The position numbers and the translations under genes are program-made. The notes under the pieces are model-generated. The model was not told where the DNA came from, did no database searches, and saw nothing but the letters and a program-made list of their open reading frames with translations. Positions 1,382 through 9,403 of a stretch of 64,000 nt of DNA are shown here, in pieces. The DNA comes from an uncultured Chloroflexia bacterium (lineage in GTDB: Bacteria > Chloroflexota > Limnocylindria > Limnocylindrales > CSP1-4), in contig CAVSXG010000002.1 in assembly GCA_963731865.1 (NCBI GenBank), positions 455,271 to 519,270 of the forward strand. Reading direction: 5' to 3'. Every line of letters begins with the position of its first letter. Position 1 is the stretch's first letter.

Positions 1382-2551
1382 CGTCCAGATACGTGCGTGA
1401 CACCGGGGCTGGGCGCGGAGTGAGGCGAACCCGGGGCTGAAAACGAGTCGAGAGCCCTCGCTACGCTGGTGGTGTCAAGACATCAGCAACGGAGGCTCTC
1501 GATGCGCAAGTCTACGCGGGCTCGATCGCCGAGGGGACGGAACGCGGGTGGTCAGCTCATCGTCACCACCAGGCGCCAACCACCCGCCGTTGCACCCGAT
1601 CTGTCGCGCGATGCCCGGCGACGGCTGGCGATGGTCGACTGGCATCGCGCCCATGGTGCCAACATCAGCCGGACCGCCCGCCACTTCGGCTACTCGCGGC
1701 CGACCGTCTATCGCTGGCTTGCGCGCTATGACCGCTTCCGGCTCGAGACGCTCGAGGACCGCCCTTCGGCGCCACATCGACGACGTCGATCGACCTGGAC
1801 GATCGAGCAACTGGGCGCCGTCCGCGACGTCCGGCTCCAATACCCGCGCTGGGGCAAGGACAAGCTGCGGGTGCTGCTGCGCCGGGCCGGCATCGTCCTG
1901 TCGGTGTCGATGATCGGGCGGATCCTGGCCCGCCTGCGCCGCTCGGGCGAACTGCACGAGCCGGCCGCTCGACGCCGGATGAGCGTGCGCCAGCGACGCT
2001 GGGCACGGCCGTACGCGATCCGCCGACCGGCCGACTGGGTGGTCGAACGACCAGGCGACCTGGTCGAGCTCGACACCCTCGACATCCGGCCACTGCCCAG
2101 CCAGATCTGGAAGCAGTTCACCGCCCGGGACGTGGTCAGCCGCTGGGACACCGTCGAGCTCGGCCGACGGGCGACCGCGCAGGCCGCGGCCGACGTCCTC
2201 GACCGGCTGGCCGAGCGGATGCCGTTCCCGATCCGCGCCATCAGCATCGACAACGGCTCCGAGTTCATGGCCCAGTTCGAGGCCGCCTGCCAGGCCCGGG
2301 GCATCCGCTTGTTCGTCCTGCCGCCGCGCTCGCCCAAGCTGCACGGCGCGGTCGAGCGGGCCAACCGCACCCACACCGAGGAGTTCTACCAGGTGACCGA
2401 CGCCCTACCCGAGCTTGCCGCCTTCCAGGCCGAGCTGCGAGCCTGGGAAGTCGTGTACAACACTGTCCGACCACACCAGGCTCTGGGCTACCTCACCCCG
2501 GCCGAATACCTGGCCTCTGTTGGGGTCGAGGTGTAACGGACGTACTGGACG
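1382..2551 (+). mobile_element. IS481-family insertion sequence (single transposase, imperfect terminal inverted repeats)
   Basis: Left end cgtccagatacgtgcgtgacacc (1382-1404) aligns with the reverse complement of ggtgtaacggacgtactggacg (2530-2551): 20 matches, 2 mismatches, one 1-nt gap. The repeats bracket one DDE transposase ORF. I could not recognise a target-site duplication. Confidence 0.6.
1502..2536 (+). CDS. IS481-family DDE transposase (HTH + rve integrase core)
   Basis: HTH 'ISRTARHFGYSRPTVYRWLARY'. Candidate DDE residues lie in 'LDTLDI', 'SIDNGSEF' and 'HGAVERANRT'. The C-terminal 'YNTVRPHQALGYLTPAEY' is typical. GGAGG lies 8 nt upstream of ATG 1502, and the ORF is open from GTG 1469. 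No frameshift. Confidence 0.85.
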   Translation: MRKSTRARSPRGRNAGGQLIVTTRRQPPAVAPDLSRDARRRLAMVDWHRAHGANISRTARHFGYSRPTVYRWLARYDRFRLETLEDRPSAPHRRRRSTWTIEQLGAVRDVRLQYPRWGKDKLRVLLRRAGIVLSVSMIGRILARLRRSGELHEPAARRRMSVRQRRWARPYAIRRPADWVVERPGDLVELDTLDIRPLPSQIWKQFTARDVVSRWDTVELGRRATAQAAADVLDRLAERMPFPIRAISIDNGSEFMAQFEAACQARGIRLFVLPPRSPKLHGAVERANRTHTEEFYQVTDALPELAAFQAELRAWEVVYNTVRPHQALGYLTPAEYLASVGVEV

Positions 2552-2644: not shown

Positions 2645-2914
2645 GTGCCGCTGGCGCGGGAAGAGAAGCAGGAGATCATCACCGGGTATGCCACCAAGGA
2701 AGGTGACACCGGTTCACCGGAGGTCCAGGTCGCGCTCCTGACGGAGCGGATCAAGGAACTGACCGGACATCTCAAGAGCTTCCCCAAGGACAATCATTCG
2801 CGCCGCGGCCTCCTCAAGCTCGTCGGTCAGCGCCGCCGTCTTCTTGCATACCTGATGAAGAAGGACAGCGCGCGCTATCGAGTCGTCATTGGACGGCTCG
2901 GGCTCCGCCGCTAG
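2645..2914 (+). CDS. rpsO: 30S ribosomal protein S15
   Basis: 89 aa. '[51 protein letters not shown]' is canonical S15. GGAGG precedes the GTG start. Confidence 0.95.
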
Positions 2915-2927
2915 GCGATCCGCCCCC

Positions 2928-2949
2928 GGACCCCGGTATCCCGGGGTCC
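2928..2949 (+). terminator. Perfect 9-bp GC hairpin between rpsO and pnp (terminator/attenuator candidate)
   Basis: ggaccccgg-tatc-ccggggtcc followed by tctcgcgttc, 14 nt after the rpsO stop. Confidence 0.4.
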
Positions 2950-3028
2950 TCTCGCGTTCGCTCTGAAGCTCAGTCGGCCGACCCGTGCAGGTCGTTGCCT
3001 CCTCCACGACCAAGGAGGATAGGTTCCC

Positions 3029-5611
3029 TTGTCTCAGACTTTCGAGACACAGCTTGGTGGTCGAACGCTGACCATCGAAACCGGCAAACTCGCCCGTCTT
3101 GCCGGCGGCTCCGTCACCGTCCGATACGGCGACACCATGGTGCTCGGCACGGCCAACCGCGCCGAGCCGCGCCCCGGCCTCGACTTCTTCCCGCTCACGG
3201 TCGATTTCGAGGAGCGCATGTACGCCGCGGGCAAGATCCCGGGCGGCTTCATCAAGCGCGAGGCGCGACCCTCGGAGCACGCGATCCTGGCCGCCCGTCA
3301 GACGGACCGGCCGATCCGCCCGCTCTTTCCCGAGGGCTACAAGGACGACGTCCAGCTGGTCATCACCGTCCTCTCGACGGACCAGGAGAACAACCCGGAC
3401 GTCATCGGCACGATCGCGGCGTCCGCGGCGCTGACGATCAGCGAGATCCCGTTCAACGGTCCGATCGGATCGGTCCGCGTCGGACGGATCGACGGCGAAT
3501 TCGTCATCAACCCCACCCACACGCAGCTGGCCGACTCGGAGCTCGACCTGATCGTGGCCGGGACCAAGGACGCGATCATGATGGTCGAGGCCGGGGCCAA
3601 GCTCCTGCCCGAGGCCGTCATGGCCGAGGCGATCCTGTTCGGGCATCGCGCCCTCCAGCCGATCGTGGATCTCCAGGTGGAGCTCCAGAAGGCGCTGGGC
3701 AAGCCCAAGCGGATCCCGTACCTCGAGCCGTCGACCAATTCGGTCCTCGAGTTCGCGGATGCGACCGACGCCAAGCGCGAGCTCGTCGTCATCGACGTCG
3801 AGACGACCGGGACCGACCCGAAGATGGCCGACCTCCTCGAGGTCGCCGCGGTCAAGATCAAGGGCACGAAGGTCGTCGATCGCTGGTCCACCTTCGTCAA
3901 TCCCGGCCGACCGATCGTCGGCAACCAGATGCACGGCATCACCGACAAGGACGTCAAGGGGGCCCCGAACGCCAAGGAAGCGGCCGAGAAGCTGCTGGCC
4001 TTCGTCGGTGACGCGTTGATCGTCGGCCACAACGTCGGCTTCGACATCGGCTTCATCGAAGAGGCCATGGGCGACGGGTTCCGCGTCAAGCCAGGGTCAT
4101 ACATCGACACCCTGATGATCGCGCGCGAAGGGTATCCCGGTGCCGAGTCGTACAAGCTCGGCGATCTGGCGAGGTTCTTCGGGGTCGAGCTCGCGCAGGG
4201 CCACCGCGCTCTTGCGGATGCCGAGGCGACCGCCAATCTCCTGATCTGGTTCGCCAACGACCTACCGGGTCGCATCGCCACCCTCCGCGAGTCGATCGCC
4301 GAGGCCGTGCGGGCGAACCGGACTGGCGGCGACACCACCAAGCTCCTCGAGGCGGCCCGGCGTCAGGCGCGAGTCGGCAAGGCCCTGTTCAGCCTGATCC
4401 AGAAGAAGACGGTCCGCCGGATCGTGCTCGACGAAGGGATCCGGATCGACGGCCGCGGCCTTACGGACATCCGGCCGATCTCGGTCGAGGTCGGTCTCGT
4501 GCCGCGCGCCCACGGCTCGGGTCTGTTCACGCGCGGTGAGACGCAGGCGCTGACCGTCGCCACGCTCGGCGCGTCCTCGGACGTCCAGCGGATCGACACG
4601 ATCAGCCCGGAGACCGAGAAGCGCTACCTCCACCACTACAACTTCCCGCCGTACAGCACGGGCGAGAACAAGATGATGCGCGGGCCAAGCCGGCGCGACA
4701 TCGGCCACGGCCACCTCGCCGAGCGGGCGCTTGTGCCCGTCCTGCCGTCGCAGGAGGAGTTCCCATACGTGATCCGGCTCGTGTCGGAGTGCGTGACGTC
4801 GAACGGCTCCACGTCGATGGCATCGACCTGCGGCTCGACGCTCGCCCTCATGGACGCCGGCGTGCCGATCAAGGCTCCGGTTGCCGGTGCGGCGATGGGC
4901 CTGATCAGCGAACCGGATGGCCGGTTCGTGGTCCTGACCGACATCCTCGGCAAGGAGGACTCGATCGGGGACATGGACTTCAAGGTCACCGGGACGCGTG
5001 ATGGCGTCACGGCGCTCCAGATGGACATCAAGGTCCAGGGGATCAGCGAGGCGATCATCCGCGACGGCCTCAAGCAGGCCCTCACGGCCCGCCTCCAGAT
5101 TCTCGACAAGATGGCCGAGGTGCTCCCGGCAGCCCGCGAGACGATGAGCGACTTCGCGCCGCGCATCATCACGATCAAGATCAACCCCGAGAAGATCCGC
5201 GAGATCATCGGCAAGGGTGGATCGATGATCCGCAAGATCCAGGAAGAGACCCAGACGGAAATCAACGTCGAGGACGACGGCACGGTGGAGATCGCGGCCG
5301 TCTCCGGCGAAAACTCGCGCAAGGCGATCCAGTGGATCGAAAGCCTCACCCGCGAGGTCGAGATCGGCGCGCTGTACCTGGGCAAGGTCACCCGGATCAT
5401 GGGCTTCGGCGCGTTCGTCGAGATCCTGCCGGGCAAGGAAGGCCTCGTCCGGATCGGCGAGCTCGCCGACTACCACGTGCCGAGCGTCGAGGACGTCGTG
5501 TCCGTCGGCGACGAGGTGATGGTCGTCGTGACCGAGGTCGACCGCCAGGGCCGGGTCAACCTGTCGCGCAAGGCGGCCATGCAGCGCCACCTGGCAAAGG
5601 ACCCGGCATAG
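3029..5611 (+). CDS. pnp: Polynucleotide phosphorylase with an inserted DEDDh exonuclease domain
   Basis: 860-aa uninterrupted ORF with a TTG start 9 nt after AAGGAGGA. RNase PH core 1 has 'FFPLTVDFEERMYAAGKIPGGF'. Core 2 has 'RIDGRGLTDIRPI', 'GSGLFTRGETQAL' and 'GDMDFKVTGT'. KH has 'GKGGSMIRKIQ' and S1 has 'GKVTRIMGFGAFVEI'. The ORF is about 150 aa longer than typical PNPases because of the insert at 3770-4290. Confidence 0.95.
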   Translation: MSQTFETQLGGRTLTIETGKLARLAGGSVTVRYGDTMVLGTANRAEPRPGLDFFPLTVDFEERMYAAGKIPGGFIKREARPSEHAILAARQTDRPIRPLFPEGYKDDVQLVITVLSTDQENNPDVIGTIAASAALTISEIPFNGPIGSVRVGRIDGEFVINPTHTQLADSELDLIVAGTKDAIMMVEAGAKLLPEAVMAEAILFGHRALQPIVDLQVELQKALGKPKRIPYLEPSTNSVLEFADATDAKRELVVIDVETTGTDPKMADLLEVAAVKIKGTKVVDRWSTFVNPGRPIVGNQMHGITDKDVKGAPNAKEAAEKLLAFVGDALIVGHNVGFDIGFIEEAMGDGFRVKPGSYIDTLMIAREGYPGAESYKLGDLARFFGVELAQGHRALADAEATANLLIWFANDLPGRIATLRESIAEAVRANRTGGDTTKLLEAARRQARVGKALFSLIQKKTVRRIVLDEGIRIDGRGLTDIRPISVEVGLVPRAHGSGLFTRGETQALTVATLGASSDVQRIDTISPETEKRYLHHYNFPPYSTGENKMMRGPSRRDIGHGHLAERALVPVLPSQEEFPYVIRLVSECVTSNGSTSMASTCGSTLALMDAGVPIKAPVAGAAMGLISEPDGRFVVLTDILGKEDSIGDMDFKVTGTRDGVTALQMDIKVQGISEAIIRDGLKQALTARLQILDKMAEVLPAARETMSDFAPRIITIKINPEKIREIIGKGGSMIRKIQEETQTEINVEDDGTVEIAAVSGENSRKAIQWIESLTREVEIGALYLGKVTRIMGFGAFVEILPGKEGLVRIGELADYHVPSVEDVVSVGDEVMVVVTEVDRQGRVNLSRKAAMQRHLAKDPA
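3770..4290 (+). other. DnaQ/RNase T-like DEDDh 3'-5' exonuclease domain embedded in pnp
   Basis: Exo I is 'VVIDVETTG' (D 3794-3796, E 3800-3802). Exo II is 'VGHNVGFDIGF' (about 4022-4057). Exo III is 'HRALAD' (H 4202-4204, D 4217-4219, i.e. H-x4-D). All are in frame with the flanking PNPase sequence. Confidence 0.8.
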
Positions 5612-5796: not shown

Positions 5797-6897
5797 ATGT
5801 CACGGATGAACCGCCAACCACTCACCGTCGCCGTCGTGGGCGCCACGGGCGTCGTCGGACGGACGATGATCCAGATCCTCAACGAACGGGAATTTCCGGT
5901 CGGTGAGTTGCGCCTGCTTGCCTCCGGGCGTTCGGCAGGCCGCAGCGTCATCGTCGATGGTCGGACCCTCGAGATCGCCGAAGCGGTTCCCGAGGCGTTC
6001 GAAGGCGTCGACATCGCCCTCTTCTCGGCCGGCGCCGACGTGTCGCGGGACCTGGCGCCGGCAGCGGTCTCCAGGGGCGCCACCGTCATCGACAACTCGT
6101 CCGCGTGGCGGATGGAGCCAACCGTCCCGTTGGTCGTCTCACAGGTCAATCCAGACGACCTCGAAGGGCATCCGGGGATCGTCGCCAACCCCAACTGCTC
6201 GACGATGCAGCTGGCGCCCGTGCTGATGGCCCTGCGCGATACGGTCGGGATCGAGCGAGTCATCGTCGACACCTACCAGTCCGTGTCGGGCACCGGCGCC
6301 GATGCGCTCGCCGAGCTCGAGGGCCAGATCCGGGCCCATGTCTCGGGCGAGCCAAAGACAGCGAGCGTCTATCCGCACCCGATCGCGTTCAACGCGCTGC
6401 CCGAGATCGATGTCTTCCTGCCCAACGGCTACACCAAGGAGGAATGGAAGGTCGTCAACGAGAACCGCAAGATCCTGGGCCTGCCCGATCTGCGCATCTC
6501 GTGCACGGCGGTGCGGATCCCCGTCTTCGTGAGCCACTCCGAGGCCGTCCACGTCGAGACGCGCGACCCGATCACGCCCGAGCGCGCTCGCGAGCTGTTC
6601 GCGGCCGTCGCCCGGCGTCCTCGTCCAGGACGATCCCGAGGCGCACGAGTATCCCGCTCGCCTCGGACGCCGCCGGCCGCGACGAGATCTTCGTGGGGCG
6701 GGTTCGCCGCGACGTCTCGATCGATGATGACCGTGGTCTTGCGTTCTGGGTCGTCTCCGACAACCTGCGCAAGGGGGCCGCGACGAACGCCGTCGAGATC
6801 GCGGAGCTGCTCCGCGAGCGGGAGCTGGGTCGCGTCTGCCTCCGCCCGTGGGGCCCGCCCGTACCGCGCCATGGGCGCCGTCGGGGCCACGGCGTGA
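5797..6897 (+). pseudogene. asd: Aspartate-semialdehyde dehydrogenase, frameshifted as sequenced (probably artefactual)
   Basis: Motifs 'VAVVGATGVVGRTM', active-site 'ANPNCSTMQ' and 'DTYQSVSGTG'. The conserved sequence continues in frame 2 after CCC 6611-6613 ('PGVLVQDDPEAHEYP'). It then continues in frame 3 after CCC 6653-6655 ('LASDAAGRDEIFVGRVRRD...SDNLRKGAATNAVEIAELL'). A third shift is needed to reach the frame-1 stop at 6895-6897. Confidence 0.85.
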
Positions 6898-7697
6898 CGG
6901 ACCTCGAGCGCCGGCAGGTGCTCGACGCCATCGCCGCTGAGGTCCGGGTGTGCACGAACTGCCGGTTGCACGAGACCCGGACGAACGCCGTTCCTGGTGA
7001 GGGCGACCCGGAGACCGAGGTCGTGTTCGTCGGCGAGGGCCCGGGCTTCAACGAGGACCGGGGCGGGCGACCGTTCATCGGTCGCGCTGGCGATCTGCTG
7101 GTCAAGCTGCTGGCCTCGATCGGTTGGCGTCGCGAGGAGGTCTTCATCACCAACATCGTCAAGTGCCGGCCACCCGAGAACCGCGACCCGCTCCCGGACG
7201 AGGTCGCGGCATGTGCGCCGTACCTGCACCGACAACTCGCCGCGCTCGACCCCGCGGTGATCGTGACGCTGGGGCGGCACTCGATGGCCCGGTTCATGCC
7301 CGGCGCGCGGATCTCGCAAGCGCACGGCACGGTTCGCCCGGTCGATCCCGAAACCGGCGCCCAGGACGCGCTCGTATTCGCCATGTACCACCCGGCGGCA
7401 GCGCTCCGGACAGGGGCGATCGAGGCCGAGAGCTACGCGGACATCGCCGGCGTCCCGATTGCCTTGCTCGACGCCCGTCGCCGTCGCGAGACGGCGAGGG
7501 TTCAGCGGGAGACTGCTGCGCGTCCCGTCGACGCGACACCCGCCACTGCCGTACCCGTCGCCGCGACGCCCGCTGCGCCAGCCGAGCCGACGACCACCCC
7601 CGACGGGAGCGACCGAGTGGGGGTCACCGCTGACAGCCAGCTCGATCCCTCGGCGCGTCCCGGCGAGACCACCACGCCCCAGCTGACCCTCTTCTAG
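6894..7697 (+). CDS. Family-4 uracil-DNA glycosylase (Fe-S type) with Pro/Ala/Thr-rich C-terminal tail
   Basis: Motifs 'CTNCRLHETRTNAVPGEGDPETEVVFVGEGPG', 'GRPFIGRAGDLL', 'ITNIVKCRPPENRDP' and 'MYHPAAALR'. GTG 6894 overlaps TGA 6895-6897. The start is inferred, because this frame is also open upstream through the asd 3' part. Confidence 0.8.
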   Translation: MTDLERRQVLDAIAAEVRVCTNCRLHETRTNAVPGEGDPETEVVFVGEGPGFNEDRGGRPFIGRAGDLLVKLLASIGWRREEVFITNIVKCRPPENRDPLPDEVAACAPYLHRQLAALDPAVIVTLGRHSMARFMPGARISQAHGTVRPVDPETGAQDALVFAMYHPAAALRTGAIEAESYADIAGVPIALLDARRRRETARVQRETAARPVDATPATAVPVAATPAAPAEPTTTPDGSDRVGVTADSQLDPSARPGETTTPQLTLF

Positions 7698-7699
7698 CC

Positions 7700-9403
7700 A
7701 TGTCCCCACAGAAGAACGCACCCGTGAAGAACGCACCCGTGGACGACGAGCCGCTCCGGATCATCCCGCTCGGCGGGGTGGGGGAGATCGGCAAGAACAT
7801 GTACGTGTTCGAGTACCGCGACGAGATCGTCGTGATCGACTGCGGGCTGATGTTCCCGGACGAGGAGATGTTCGGCATCGACCTCGTCATCCCGGACATC
7901 ACGTACCTCAAGGAACGGCGAGCGAACGTCAAGGCATTCCTCATCACCCACGCCCACGAGGACCATGTCGGGGCCTTGCCCTACGTCCTGCCGGAGTTCC
8001 CGGGCGTCCCCGTCTATGCCTCGACGCTCGCCCGTGGTCTCCTCGGCAACAAGATCAAGGAGCACAAGCTCCACAACAACCCGCTGATCGCGCTCGAACC
8101 GGGCGACGAGGTCCAGATCGGCGCGTTCACGGTGATGCCCTTCCGGGTGGGCCACTCCATCCCTGACGCGATGGGCATCGCCCTGCGGACGCCGGTCGGC
8201 ACGATCGTCCACACCGGGCGACTTCAAGTTCGATCACACGCCGGTGGACGGCAAGCTGTCCGACTTCGCGATCCTGGCGCGCCTCGGCCAGGAGGGCGTC
8301 GCGTGCCTCCTGTCGGACTCGACGCGAGCCGAGAACCCCGGCTACACGCCGTCCGAACGAACCGTCGGCGACGCGTTCCGCGAGATCATGGAGCCGCTCG
8401 ACGGCCGAGTCATCGTGGCGACCTTTGCGAGCAACATCGCCAGGGTCCAGCAGGTCCTTGACGCCGCGGCCGACATGAACCGGAGCGTTTCGGTCATCGG
8501 GCGGTCGATGGAGCAGAACTTCCGGATCGCCACTGACCTGGGCTACCTCAAGTACGACCCGGCACGGATCGTGTCCAAGGACAAGATCAAGGACCACCCG
8601 GATGCGAAGCTGGTCATCGCCACGACCGGCGCTCAGGGCGAGCCGATGGCGGGTCTCGCCCGGATGGCCAACCGGGACCACCGATTCGTGGAGATCCAGC
8701 CCGGCGACACGGTCATCGTCAGCGCAAGCCCAATCCCGGGCAACGAGGAGTACGTCTCGCGGACGATCGACAACCTGTTCAAGGCTGGCGCCAACGTCTA
8801 CTACCACACGATCAAGCGCGCCCACGTGTCGGGTCACGCCAGCCAGGAAGAGCTCAAGCTCATGCTCGGCCTGACCAAGCCGAAGCACTTCATCCCGATC
8901 CACGGCGAGTTCCGGATGCAGGTGCAGCACGGCCGGCTGGCGATCGAGACCGGGCGTCCTTCCCGAGAACGTGTTCATCATCGAGAACGGCACACCGATC
9001 GAGCTCTTCGCCGATGGCAGCGCCCGACGCGGCCAGCCCGGTCACGGCCGGTTACGTGTACGTCGACGGGCTGTCGGTCGGCGAGGTCGGCGATGTCGTC
9101 CTGCGCGACCGACGATCGCTCGCCAACGACGGCATGTTCATGATCGTCGTCACCATCGACAAGCAGACCGGCTCGGTCATCGGTCGGCCGGAGATCATCA
9201 CCCGCGGCTTCGTCCACCTCAACGAGCTCGATCCGCTCATGGAGGAGGCCGTCAACCGGGTGATGAAGGCCATCGACACGCCGGGCGACCACATCAGCGA
9301 GGTCGGCCTGCTCAAGGAGCAGGTCAAGGACGGGGTCTCGCGCTACCTCTACGAGCAGACGAAGCGACGACCGATGGTCTTCCCGGTCGTCGTCGAGGTG
9401 TAG
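7700..9403 (+). pseudogene. rnj: Ribonuclease J, three +1 frameshifts as sequenced (probably artefactual)
   Basis: Metallo-beta-lactamase motif 'LITHAHEDHVGALP', then beta-CASP and C-terminal domains. The conserved sequence runs 7700-8218 (frame 2), to 8953 (frame 3), to about 9038 (frame 1), to 9403 (frame 2). The shifts fall at GGG 8216-8218, GGG 8952-8954 and CCC 9037-9039. Confidence 0.9.

Follow-up and report, generated by a model that had tools for sequence, protein, structure and literature searches.

The pnp gene occupies positions 3029–5611 (plus strand) of the window, by which we mean the whole 64-kb stretch of DNA that was analysed, and encodes an 860-amino-acid PNPase with an inserted DEDDh exonuclease, as assigned from Pfam, NCBIfam, alignment to solved PNPases and AF2 modelling. 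The ORF begins with TTG and has no internal stop, in agreement with the initial annotation, which had described 860 uninterrupted codons. Upstream lies rpsO (ribosomal protein S15; 2645–2914, plus strand; PF00312, E = 4e-35), the usual upstream partner of housekeeping pnp, and the same gene order is found in the relative L001. A Shine-Dalgarno sequence, AAGGAGGA, is read directly from the DNA at 3012–3019 (plus strand), 9 nt 5′ of the TTG start, and the resulting N-terminus, MSQTFETQ, agrees with the N-termini of homologues. The rpsO-pnp intergenic leader is predicted by RNA folding to form a G+C-rich hairpin, GGACCCCGG-UAUC-CCGGGGUCC (2928–2949, plus strand); the fold of 2912–3040 has an energy of −55.9 kcal/mol (z = −2.76), and 0 of 200 shuffled sequences were equally stable. 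We infer only that this hairpin may be a terminator/attenuator or a processing site; Rfam returned no family match for the leader, and Rfam and promoter/terminator scans around pnp gave nothing specific. RNase J lies two genes downstream of pnp. As had been remarked for the neighbouring genes, both asd (split near 6600) and RNase J (pieces 7700–8458 and 8244–9140) are frameshifted, which is typical for a long-read assembly. A UDG gene is located two genes downstream of the insert-bearing pnp, and neither a second pnp nor a second DEDDh copy was found within the 64-kb window.

Outside the insert, the product is a canonical PNPase, as the initial annotation had claimed of its flanks. The whole 860-residue protein scores 954.7 bits against the PNPase equivalog TIGR03591, passing the cut-off of 525.05, and 949.1 bits against NF008805 (cut-off 471), and Pfam recovers two copies each of RNase_PH and RNase_PH_C followed by KH_1 and S1. 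RNase PH-like core 1 (RNase_PH plus RNase_PH_C; residues 1–225, 3029–3703) aligns to residues 18–235 of 5yjj. Core 2 (residues 481–700, 4469–5128), also assigned by Pfam, contains the phosphorolytic site and is followed by the KH domain (residues 714–771, 5168–5341; PF00013, E = 5.9e-11) and the S1 domain (residues 777–848, 5357–5572; PF00575, E = 3.2e-18), all encoded on the plus strand. The PH2 phosphate-site motif SNGSxSMA (S591NGSTSMA) and metal-site motif GDMDFK (G647DMDFKV) align with those of the E. coli and 5yjj PNPases and are conserved across the family; judged by sequence, both PNPase halves look catalytically intact. The AF2 model of the full-length monomer (pLDDT 90.0, pTM 0.83) matches PNPase structures in Foldseek with a target-normalised TM of up to 0.93.

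Between the two PH cores of this single uninterrupted polypeptide lies a DEDDh (DnaQ/PolC/DinG-like) 3′–5′ exonuclease domain (residues 251–410; 3779–4258, plus strand), identified with PF00929, NCBIfam models and Foldseek. The profile search put forward in the initial annotation found PF00929 (RNase_T), as anticipated there, between the PH pairs at residues 253–405 and matched over its full length (profile positions 1–164 of 164; 110.8 bits, cut-off 24; E = 1.3e-31). Alignment to solved PNPases, likewise suggested there for defining the insert borders, leaves residues ~221–452 unmatched; the corresponding stretch has 76 residues in PNPase 5yjj and ~53 in that of E. coli (7ogk), for a net insertion of about 156–159 residues. 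The three exonuclease motifs that had been read from the sequence are present in order, VVIDVETTG at residue 253 (nt 3785–3811), VGHNVGFDIGF at residue 332 (4022–4054) and HRALAD at residue 392 (4202–4219), and all fall within the interval 3770–4290 originally assigned to the insert. They contain Exo I (D256-x-E258; 3794–3802), Exo II (H334-N-x-x-F-D339; 4028–4045) and Exo III (H392-x4-D397; 4202–4219), the last being the signature of the DEDDh subtype; all three are on the plus strand. All five catalytic residues (D256, E258, D339, H392 and D397) are unchanged in 139/139 correctly framed orthologues, as is H334; at position 335, 99 of these sequences have N and 40 have S. Apparent exceptions among the catalytic residues in L071, L190 and L241 were rejected because a wrong-frame ORF had been picked as the longest ORF in each. 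Since the PH2 site is intact and all five metal-/water-activating residues of the DEDDh domain are invariant, the inserted exonuclease and the phosphorolytic site are probably both active.

The exonuclease module appears to be positioned inside the PNPase helical domain, between its first and second helices. The initial annotation had the insert taking the place of the linker domain; the location is right, but the domain appears to be kept, not replaced. In the AF2 model one helical segment is kept before the insert and three after it (residues ~411–469, comprising 411–431, 436–447 and 451–469). The first of these segments, which directly precedes the insert, spans residues 237–247 (3737–3769, plus strand) by AF2 secondary structure, and the remainder of the helical domain spans residues 411–476 (4259–4456, plus strand), where PF03726 gives a partial match. 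Only profile positions 52–80 of PF03726 match (residues 448–476; 24.2 bits against a cut-off of 24.6), and the first two thirds of the profile are not recognisable in the insert-bearing PNPase. In-silico excision of the DEDDh module at five different borders did not restore the full PF03726 match, and only positions 50–80 were recovered. By this profile comparison the N-terminal part of the helical domain is diverged, and the ancestral insertion point is not exactly fixable from PF03726 alone. On the C-terminal side, two independent AF2 runs predict a continuous helix (residues 394–431; 4208–4321, plus strand) running from the last helix of the exonuclease into the helical domain, with pLDDT of about 86–95 for this block in both. 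The helix contains a conserved junction motif, D411-L-P-x-R415, and the position of P413 inside it suggests that the connection may be kinked instead of straight. The linker at residues 226–250 has a dN/dS of 0.46.

To place the inserted domain among the DEDDh families, we compared it with profile and structure databases. AF2 predicts an RNase H-like α/β fold (pLDDT 87), and Foldseek assigns a probability of 1.00 to the exonuclease domains of DinG, PolC and epsilon, with rmsd values of 2.3–2.8 Å over about 171–178 alignment columns for PolC, DnaQ and epsilon; the best fold matches are 8zef (DinG) and 9qrn (35% identity, rmsd 2.5 Å). The best PDB matches by sequence are PolC 9qpc (E = 8e-24), 2p1j, DinG 8zef and DnaQ 8h18, and further DNA-acting matches by sequence or fold include Pol III epsilon, Exo X and Cas2-DEDDh. 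Among NCBIfam models the best matches are PRK07883 and the PolC and DinG exonuclease models, with the match to the PolC, DinG and PRK07883 proteins limited to the exonuclease domain and their polymerase, helicase and GIY-YIG partners unmatched. No NCBIfam equivalog cut-off is reached (136.7 against 873 bits for PolC, 134.9 against 789 for DinG and 150.3 to 154.7 against 495 for NF005906), so the insert falls outside every named orthologous group. RNase T ranks below DnaQ, PolC and DinG, Orn 9f7m appears at Foldseek rank 48 (TMq 0.43, 21% identity), and no Orn model is found among the best 25 of the 31 NCBIfam models matched. By sequence and predicted fold, the insert belongs to the DnaQ/PolC-proofreader/DinG-exonuclease group and not to Orn or RNase T. 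The original label of DnaQ/RNase T/Orn-like was thus too broad, and with Orn so remote the oligoribonuclease analogy is functional speculation and not homology.

The initial annotation had also proposed asking how widely the architecture and its junctions occur. The whole gene, or both of its junctions, was recovered from 160 listed species-representative genomes, and the number of genomes that encode a relative is at least 291. The insert-bearing genomes belong to the class Ca. Limnocylindria (Chloroflexota), including Ca. Limnocylindrus, Ca. Aquidulcis and CSP1-4, and derive from independent short-read (megahit, SPAdes) and long-read assemblies of many studies and habitats; genomes of this lineage are small (~2.4 Mb). 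Full-length copies of 860–864 residues were found in NCBI, JGI, ENA and Logan. A neighbour-joining (NJ) tree built from the cores only places all insert-bearing PNPases (62/62) in one clade, whose sister is an insert-free Chloroflexota PNPase, from the lineage of MAG CF_4 (VBDQ01). An exhaustive search of 1.84 billion representatives returned 58,364 matches, and among the best 150 of these P0121 is the sole full-length match in one stretch; the other one-stretch matches are fragments from the P0121 family, and further PNPases, at no more than 61% identity, align in two stretches. No independent PNPase-DEDDh fusion occurs among the same 150, and in the ten of its longest PNPases that were scanned the added length consists of extra S1/KH repeats or tails.

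The exonuclease domain is, from codon comparison, under purifying selection, with a dN/dS of 0.27 against 0.15–0.17 for the PH cores. Median pairwise identity among orthologues is 63% for the exonuclease and 83% for the cores; the exonuclease evolves faster and is therefore less constrained. Recent horizontal insertion or a mobile element was rejected in view of the single clade, the purifying selection and the absence of any GC or skew discontinuity. Homologues of 450 residues or fewer had raised the reading of a split gene, which was also rejected, since those inspected are frameshift-broken fragments and intact full-length copies exist. The frequent indels of the source assembly (asd and RNase J) and the many broken gene calls among database homologues would be in keeping with an artefact, that is, a chimeric assembly or a gene mis-joined in an error-prone long-read contig. 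This explanation can be regarded as refuted: the uninterrupted ORF of 860–864 residues also occurs in megahit and SPAdes short-read assemblies from many studies and habitats, the junctions are conserved, the genes form a single clade, and GC and skew show no break at the insert. The initial annotation had reached the same conclusion from the lack of frameshifts; the conclusion stands, but the better evidence is the 160 genomes, the one clade and the purifying selection. In our best explanation, itself a tentative one, an ancestor of the Ca. Limnocylindria lineage would have acquired the exonuclease domain in its PNPase.

Canonical PNPases (TIGR03591; E. coli Pnp, S. antibioticus GpsI, C. crescentus PNPase) share with the Limnocylindria enzyme the order PH1-helical-PH2-KH-S1, with the helical domain as AF2 predicts it, the phosphorolytic-site motifs and the rpsO-pnp synteny; outside the insert, its identity to solved or typical PNPases is 42–55%. 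The Limnocylindria enzyme differs in having about 157 extra residues that make up a complete DEDDh exonuclease in the helical domain, and we know of no characterised PNPase with a second nuclease domain. The insert has the same Exo I/II/III motifs, including H-x4-D, as the PolC proofreading domain, the N-terminal exonuclease of DinG and Pol III epsilon, but its host is an RNA phosphorylase whereas theirs is a polymerase or helicase; in PolC the DnaQ-like domain is likewise inserted within another domain (PHP). Orn and REXO2 are also DEDDh hydrolytic 3′–5′ exonucleases and finish decay after PNPase, a relationship that the fusion may hard-wire. In contrast to the insert, however, they are separate proteins with no family-level homology to it and act as obligate dimers whose 5′-phosphate cap confines them to dinucleotide substrates, whereas the host protein of the fusion is expected to be a trimer. 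RNase D and Rrp6 are DEDDy enzymes, and Rrp6 is found on the cap side of its ring. In human mitochondria PNPase-SUV3 is paired with REXO2 (PMC7261184), and both the eukaryotic exosome (Exo9-Rrp6) and the Caulobacter degradosome (PNPase plus RNase D) combine a PH ring with a DEDD-superfamily hydrolytic 3′–5′ exoribonuclease in one machine (PMC4245959, PMC5735172). The latter two associations are non-covalent, in contrast to the Limnocylindria DEDDh domain, which is fused in cis within the helical domain, on the ring face away from the cap side.

The helical domain of known PNPases sits on the side of the ring that faces away from the KH/S1 RNA entrance and contributes to a side pore leading to the active site, so the trimer should carry three hydrolytic modules on its back face. 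The best reading of the architecture mounts the exonuclease on the ring face with the side pore to the phosphorolytic site, and the AF2 models suggest that the modules should be held by a continuous helix and not by a floppy tether. The helical domain, which flanks the NDP/Pi pore, affects the activity of PNPase (PMC2723993). We put forward as the best explanation, with confidence that falls a little short of even, a single housekeeping, rpsO-linked PNPase with an added hydrolytic exonuclease that would finish what phosphorolysis leaves. The PNPase ring would thread RNA and phosphorolyse it from the 3′ end, and the hydrolytic module would take over what phosphorolysis cannot finish, the candidate substrates being the short limit oligonucleotides that leave close to the active site, or 3′ ends at which the PH site stalls. 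Work that is elsewhere split between PNPase and Orn/REXO2, Caulobacter RNase D or the exosome Rrp6 would then be united in one polypeptide. A short oligonucleotide product does remain after PNPase (PMC11572968), and short oligonucleotides from exoribonucleases require a dedicated nanoRNase (PMC9779919). A built-in nanoRNase is a plausible role that fits the predicted position beside the active-site side pore (PMC2723993). The stronger version, a self-contained RNA-decay machine in which three rigid DEDDh sites at the back-face pore or exit would finish 2–5-nt products or unblock stalled 3′ ends and so replace a separate nanoRNase, is possible but doubtful.

The families closest to the insert, proofreading and repair exonucleases directed at DNA, speak against an RNA role. 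Reported ssDNA exonuclease/polymerase activities and DNA-repair phenotypes of B. subtilis and mycobacterial PNPase also favour the alternative that the inserted exonuclease acts on DNA, not RNA, and that the PNPase ring is a single-strand-binding platform for repair or recombination, serving 3′-end resection or clean-up, or the stripping of RNA from RNA-DNA hybrids. All of the top matches by sequence and fold (PolC proofreading, DinG, Pol III epsilon, Exo X and Cas2-DEDDh) act on DNA, and the closest characterised relatives act chiefly on ssDNA, although some act on RNA too (PMC12345164, PMC12525004). The B. subtilis DinG exonuclease favours ssDNA and the RNA strand in a hybrid as substrates and, with Mg2+, leaves linear ssRNA uncut (PMC12525004), but that of SaDinG, the closest characterised relative, degrades ssDNA to mononucleotides and is reported to be active on RNA substrates as well (PMC12345164). 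DEDDh sugar specificity, moreover, is not readable from sequence, the gene keeps the classical arrangement with rpsO, lies two genes upstream of RNase J and retains all the RNA-decay features of PNPase, and the sole DNA-repair gene in specific linkage with it is UDG, whose place two genes downstream is weak evidence. We consider action on DNA unlikely, though it deserves serious weight.

A further alternative makes the module chiefly structural or regulatory, gating or tuning phosphorolysis or, as a substitute for an RNase E-type degradosome scaffold, recruiting partners, with hydrolysis incidental or lost. Such a role would be consistent with the reported influence of the helical domain and its place at the NDP/Pi pore (PMC2723993), with the AF2-predicted rigid helical connection, which would pass on conformational changes, and with the conservation of the linkers too, as in the DLPxR motif. 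In a domain with a purely structural role, however, some catalytic residues would normally be lost, and here the five catalytic residues and H334 are invariant in 139 orthologues despite a median domain identity of ~63%, a pattern expected only if catalysis is selected; we regard this alternative as quite improbable.

Few RNA-decay enzymes have been studied as much as PNPase, and to our knowledge its five-domain plan has been treated as invariant from bacteria to human mitochondria. Across an entire class of uncultured soil and freshwater bacteria that are abundant in the environment, this enzyme carries a second nuclease of different chemistry that is apparently active, at a defined, apparently rigid position that the models place beside the active-site side pore. 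In line with the novelty suggested at the outset, no published description of a PNPase-DEDDh fusion was found in the literature, and a recent comparative-genomics paper on Limnocylindria mentions neither PNPase nor exonucleases. If the domain acts on RNA, the enzyme would be a natural experiment coupling phosphorolytic and hydrolytic decay, with a direct bearing on the clearance of PNPase limit oligonucleotides; action on DNA would lend sequence-level support to the debated role of PNPase in DNA repair. Should the self-contained RNA-decay machine be correct, the protein would be a Rosetta-stone fusion, and free-standing DnaQ-like "orphan" exonucleases in other Terrabacteria would be PNPase partners in RNA decay. 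Either way it is one compact polypeptide that is easy to express and in which the two functions can be cleanly separated by mutation (D256A/E258A versus the PH2 site). In annotation pipelines the product goes by "PNPase" or else by "DNA polymerase III epsilon subunit family exonuclease", and neither name reveals the fusion.

The pnp gene occupies an uninterrupted ORF on the forward strand (3029–5611), opens with a TTG codon preceded 9 nt upstream by a strong Shine-Dalgarno sequence (AAGGAGGA), and encodes a protein of 860 aa, as the initial annotation had read it. The whole fusion protein scores 954.7 bits against the TIGR03591 PNPase equivalog model, passing the cut-off of 525, and a Pfam search returned two RNase_PH, two RNase_PH_C, a KH and an S1 domain, together with the anticipated PF00929 (RNase_T/DEDD exonuclease) between the PH cores (aa 253–405, E=1.3e-31, profile positions 1–164 of 164). 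The three exonuclease motifs reported for this region are present in order, at aa 253, 332 and 392. Solved PNPases align to the protein in two blocks (query 3–220 and 453–851 for 5yjj), which sets the borders of the insert: aa ~221–452 are left unaligned where ordinary PNPases have about 53–76 residues, a net insertion of ~157 residues.

That the fusion is an assembly artefact was refuted, and we give this explanation a negligible probability. When each GTDB species, represented by a single genome, was scanned with the junction-spanning segment (aa 208–464), at least 291 genomes proved to encode a relative. The 80 matches listed are 67–97% identical to the query and derive from megahit, SPAdes and long-read assemblies; 78 of them span essentially the whole 257-aa query and both junctions, the remaining two (L030 and L056) being truncated by contig ends. 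This recurrence across independent assemblies bears out the earlier view that the insert is neither junk nor a chimera. A second scan seeded with P0121, the most divergent insert-bearing member (69% identical), listed 80 further loci, nearly all absent from the first set and including Ca. Limnocylindrus, Ca. Aquidulcis and the groundwater genome CSP1-4. Intact fusion proteins of 860–864 aa are present in NCBI, JGI, ENA and Logan, and no break in GC content or skew was found at the insert in the window.

Across 139 full-length, correctly framed orthologues, the exonuclease domain has a median pairwise identity of 63%, and D256 and E258 (Exo I), D339 (Exo II), H392 and D397 (Exo III) and H334 are invariant; the H-x4-D form of Exo III assigns the domain to the DEDDh subtype. 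The PNPase phosphate/metal-site motifs SNGSTSMA and GDMDFKV are also conserved, and on this sequence evidence both active sites look functional. Nei-Gojobori estimates over 400 sequence pairs gave dN/dS values of 0.14 in KH-S1, 0.15–0.17 in the PH cores, 0.27 in the exonuclease and 0.36–0.46 in the two linkers; purifying selection acts on the exonuclease, though somewhat less strongly than on the cores. The counterpart of H334 in the exonuclease of S. aureus DinG (SaDinG) is required for digestion to mononucleotides (PMC12345164). Position 335, right after H334, is N in 99 and S in 40 orthologues (H-N-x-x-F-D vs H-S-x-x-F-D), a clade-level split. Three seeming exceptions at catalytic residues proved to be wrong-frame ORFs rather than true variants.

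The best NCBIfam matches of the inserted domain are to the PRK07883-type 'DEDD exonuclease domain-containing protein', PolC, DinG and epsilon models; no equivalog cut-off was reached, which places the domain in no named orthologous group. A PDB sequence search returned PolC (9qpc, E=8e-24; 2p1j), SaDinG (8zef), DnaQ (8h18) and Cas2-DEDDh as best matches, and Foldseek ranked the exonuclease domains of SaDinG and PolC (35% identity, rmsd 2.5 Å), DnaQ and epsilon at the top, followed by RNase T and Exo X. Of the original label 'DnaQ/RNase T/Orn-like', the DnaQ part therefore stands, whereas RNase T ranks lower and Orn, only at Foldseek rank 48 with a TM of 0.43, does not fit; by sequence and predicted fold the domain is DnaQ/PolC/DinG-like, not Orn-like. 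Among characterised enzymes the nearest relatives are two DinG exonucleases. That of SaDinG degrades ssDNA to mononucleotides and is reported to be active on ssDNA and RNA substrates (PMC12345164); that of B. subtilis DinG favours ssDNA and, in hybrids, the RNA strand, cutting linear ssRNA only with Mn2+ (PMC12525004). Given these mixed DNA and RNA activities, sugar specificity cannot be inferred from the relatives.

AF2 modelled both the insert plus linkers (pLDDT 87, pTM 0.82) and the full-length fusion (pLDDT 90, pTM 0.83) with confidence. In these models a helix at aa 237–247 lies ahead of the exonuclease, which extends from its first strand at aa 251 to its last helix at ~410; the Exo III helix continues as a single helix (aa 394–431), bearing the conserved junction motif D411-L-P-x-R415, and is followed by further helices of the helical domain (aa 436–447 and 451–469) before PH2 starts at aa ~484. 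The insert had been placed at the site of the all-alpha linker domain; this location is correct, but the helical domain appears not to be replaced, since predicted helices flank the insert on both sides and a PF03726 match persists at aa 448–476. In the model the module is therefore positioned between helices one and two of the helical domain, and its predicted mount is a continuous, possibly kinked helix with no flexible tether. Nurmohamed et al. 2009 (PMC2723993) locate the helical domain of PNPase on the side of the ring facing away from S1/KH; there it contributes to a pore by which the active site can also be reached, and it may govern NDP/phosphate access. By this analogy the back face of the predicted trimer would hold three exonuclease modules, adjoining the side pores.

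We suggest that a housekeeping, rpsO-linked PNPase gained a hydrolytic 3'-5' exonuclease that would finish the short RNA oligonucleotides left by PNPase, and that fusion in cis beside the side pore of the active site would make a PNPase-DEDD partnership permanent, with putative coupling of the two sites. A short oligonucleotide remains as the product of PNPase action (PMC11572968), and cells need a dedicated enzyme for short oligonucleotides (PMC9779919). Known systems join a PH-ring enzyme to a DEDD exonuclease: human mitochondria combine PNPase-SUV3 and REXO2 (PMC7261184), the Caulobacter degradosome contains PNPase and RNase D (PMC4245959), and in the exosome Exo9 works with hydrolytic partners (PMC5735172). 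These pairings are non-covalent, whereas the fusion is in cis. RNA finishing is the best explanation we can offer, and we hold it tentatively. A DNA-directed role, to which the family affinities of the inserted domain point, is a rather unlikely but serious alternative; a mainly structural or regulatory role for the module is improbable given that its catalytic residues are invariant.

A full-text literature search found no description of a PNPase-DEDD fusion, and a recent comparative-genomics paper on Limnocylindria mentions neither PNPase nor exonucleases. Public databases name the fusion proteins 'polyribonucleotide nucleotidyltransferase' or 'DNA polymerase III epsilon subunit family exonuclease', two divergent names indicating that the fusion has escaped automated annotation. 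Each domain by itself is well known; what is new is the domain combination, the place of insertion and the fixation of the fusion in an entire class. No principle is overturned, and a specialist in RNA decay would find the fusion surprising and quickly testable.

In a neighbour-joining tree of the PNPase core, from which the columns of the insert were left out, the insert-bearing sequences with sufficient coverage, 62 in number, all fall into a single clade, whose sister is the insert-free PNPase of CF_4, a soil Chloroflexota MAG (L082 = P0125); other Chloroflexota lie further out. An exhaustive HMMER search covered 1.84 billion cluster representatives; among the best 150 of 58,364 matches, P0121 is the sole full-length protein to align in one continuous stretch, other such matches are fragments of the insert-bearing family, and the next PNPases (61% identity and below) align in two stretches and hence are without the insert. 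Ten of the longest other PNPases among these matches were scanned and have no exonuclease, their extra length being S1/KH repeats or terminal tails. Together these results make the insertion look like a single event, afterwards kept throughout a class-level lineage. P0148 (899 aa; marine-sediment and Logan assemblies), from another PNPase lineage, has ~150 extra residues (~209–367) with no Pfam family after PH1_C and ahead of a complete PF03726 helical domain, at about the same site as the DEDDh insert, and also a second KH domain; the matches listed for it in a PDB sequence search were all PNPase, S1-domain or exosome proteins. Insertions in PNPase may thus generally favour the helical-domain boundary as a hot spot.

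Record titles and NCBI taxonomy place the insert-bearing genomes in the class Ca. Limnocylindria (Chloroflexota, formerly Ellin6529), whose members have small genomes (~2.4 Mb, GC ~69%), in keeping with the window, and the fused pnp could act as a lineage marker. One MAG labelled Ca. Limnocylindria (L085, DASPZT010000060.1) nevertheless has an insert-free PNPase, and insert-bearing pnp occurs in MAGs labelled Dormiibacterota, Patescibacteria group, Binatia and Thermoflexus (L047, L188 and L209 are among the inconsistent record titles); mislabelling or misbinning is the probable cause. MAG SRP136066_co1_191 has both an insert-bearing pnp fragment (L013, CAZTAI010000380.1, 1.5 kb) and an insert-free pnp (L083, CAZTAI010000001.1, 35 kb; 71% identical to P0125), most likely because the short contig contaminates the bin; that the genome has two copies of pnp is the conceivable alternative.

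The gene order rpsO-pnp-asd-udg-rnj-ftsK is the same in a related contig (L001), and RNase J (7700–9143, forward strand) near pnp makes this a small RNA-decay gene cluster. The window assembly is indel-prone, and broken gene calls from comparable assemblies make up many of the homologues in the databases. Downstream of pnp, as had been observed of its neighbours, both asd and RNase J are split by frameshifts: in the asd and udg region (5797–7697, forward strand), asd is frameshifted near 6600 and the Semialdhyde_dhC profile resumes in another frame, running into the UDG gene, and RNase J is divided between forward-strand ORFs 7700–8458 and 8244–9140. As similar breaks occur at different places in L001, these seem to be indel errors of long-read sequencing and not marks of pseudogenes. 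Upstream of pnp lies rpsO (S15; 2645–2914, forward strand), itself directly preceded by an IS-type transposase/integrase ORF (HTH_28/HTH_32 and rve/rve_3; 1469–2536, forward strand); the genes that precede rpsO in L001 have no Pfam family on record. The rpsO-pnp leader has no Rfam match. It contains a very stable 9-bp G+C hairpin after the rpsO stop codon (2928–2949, forward strand), is as a whole more stable in RNA folding than 200 of 200 shuffles (z=-2.76), and recalls the E. coli rpsO-pnp leader, which is regulated.
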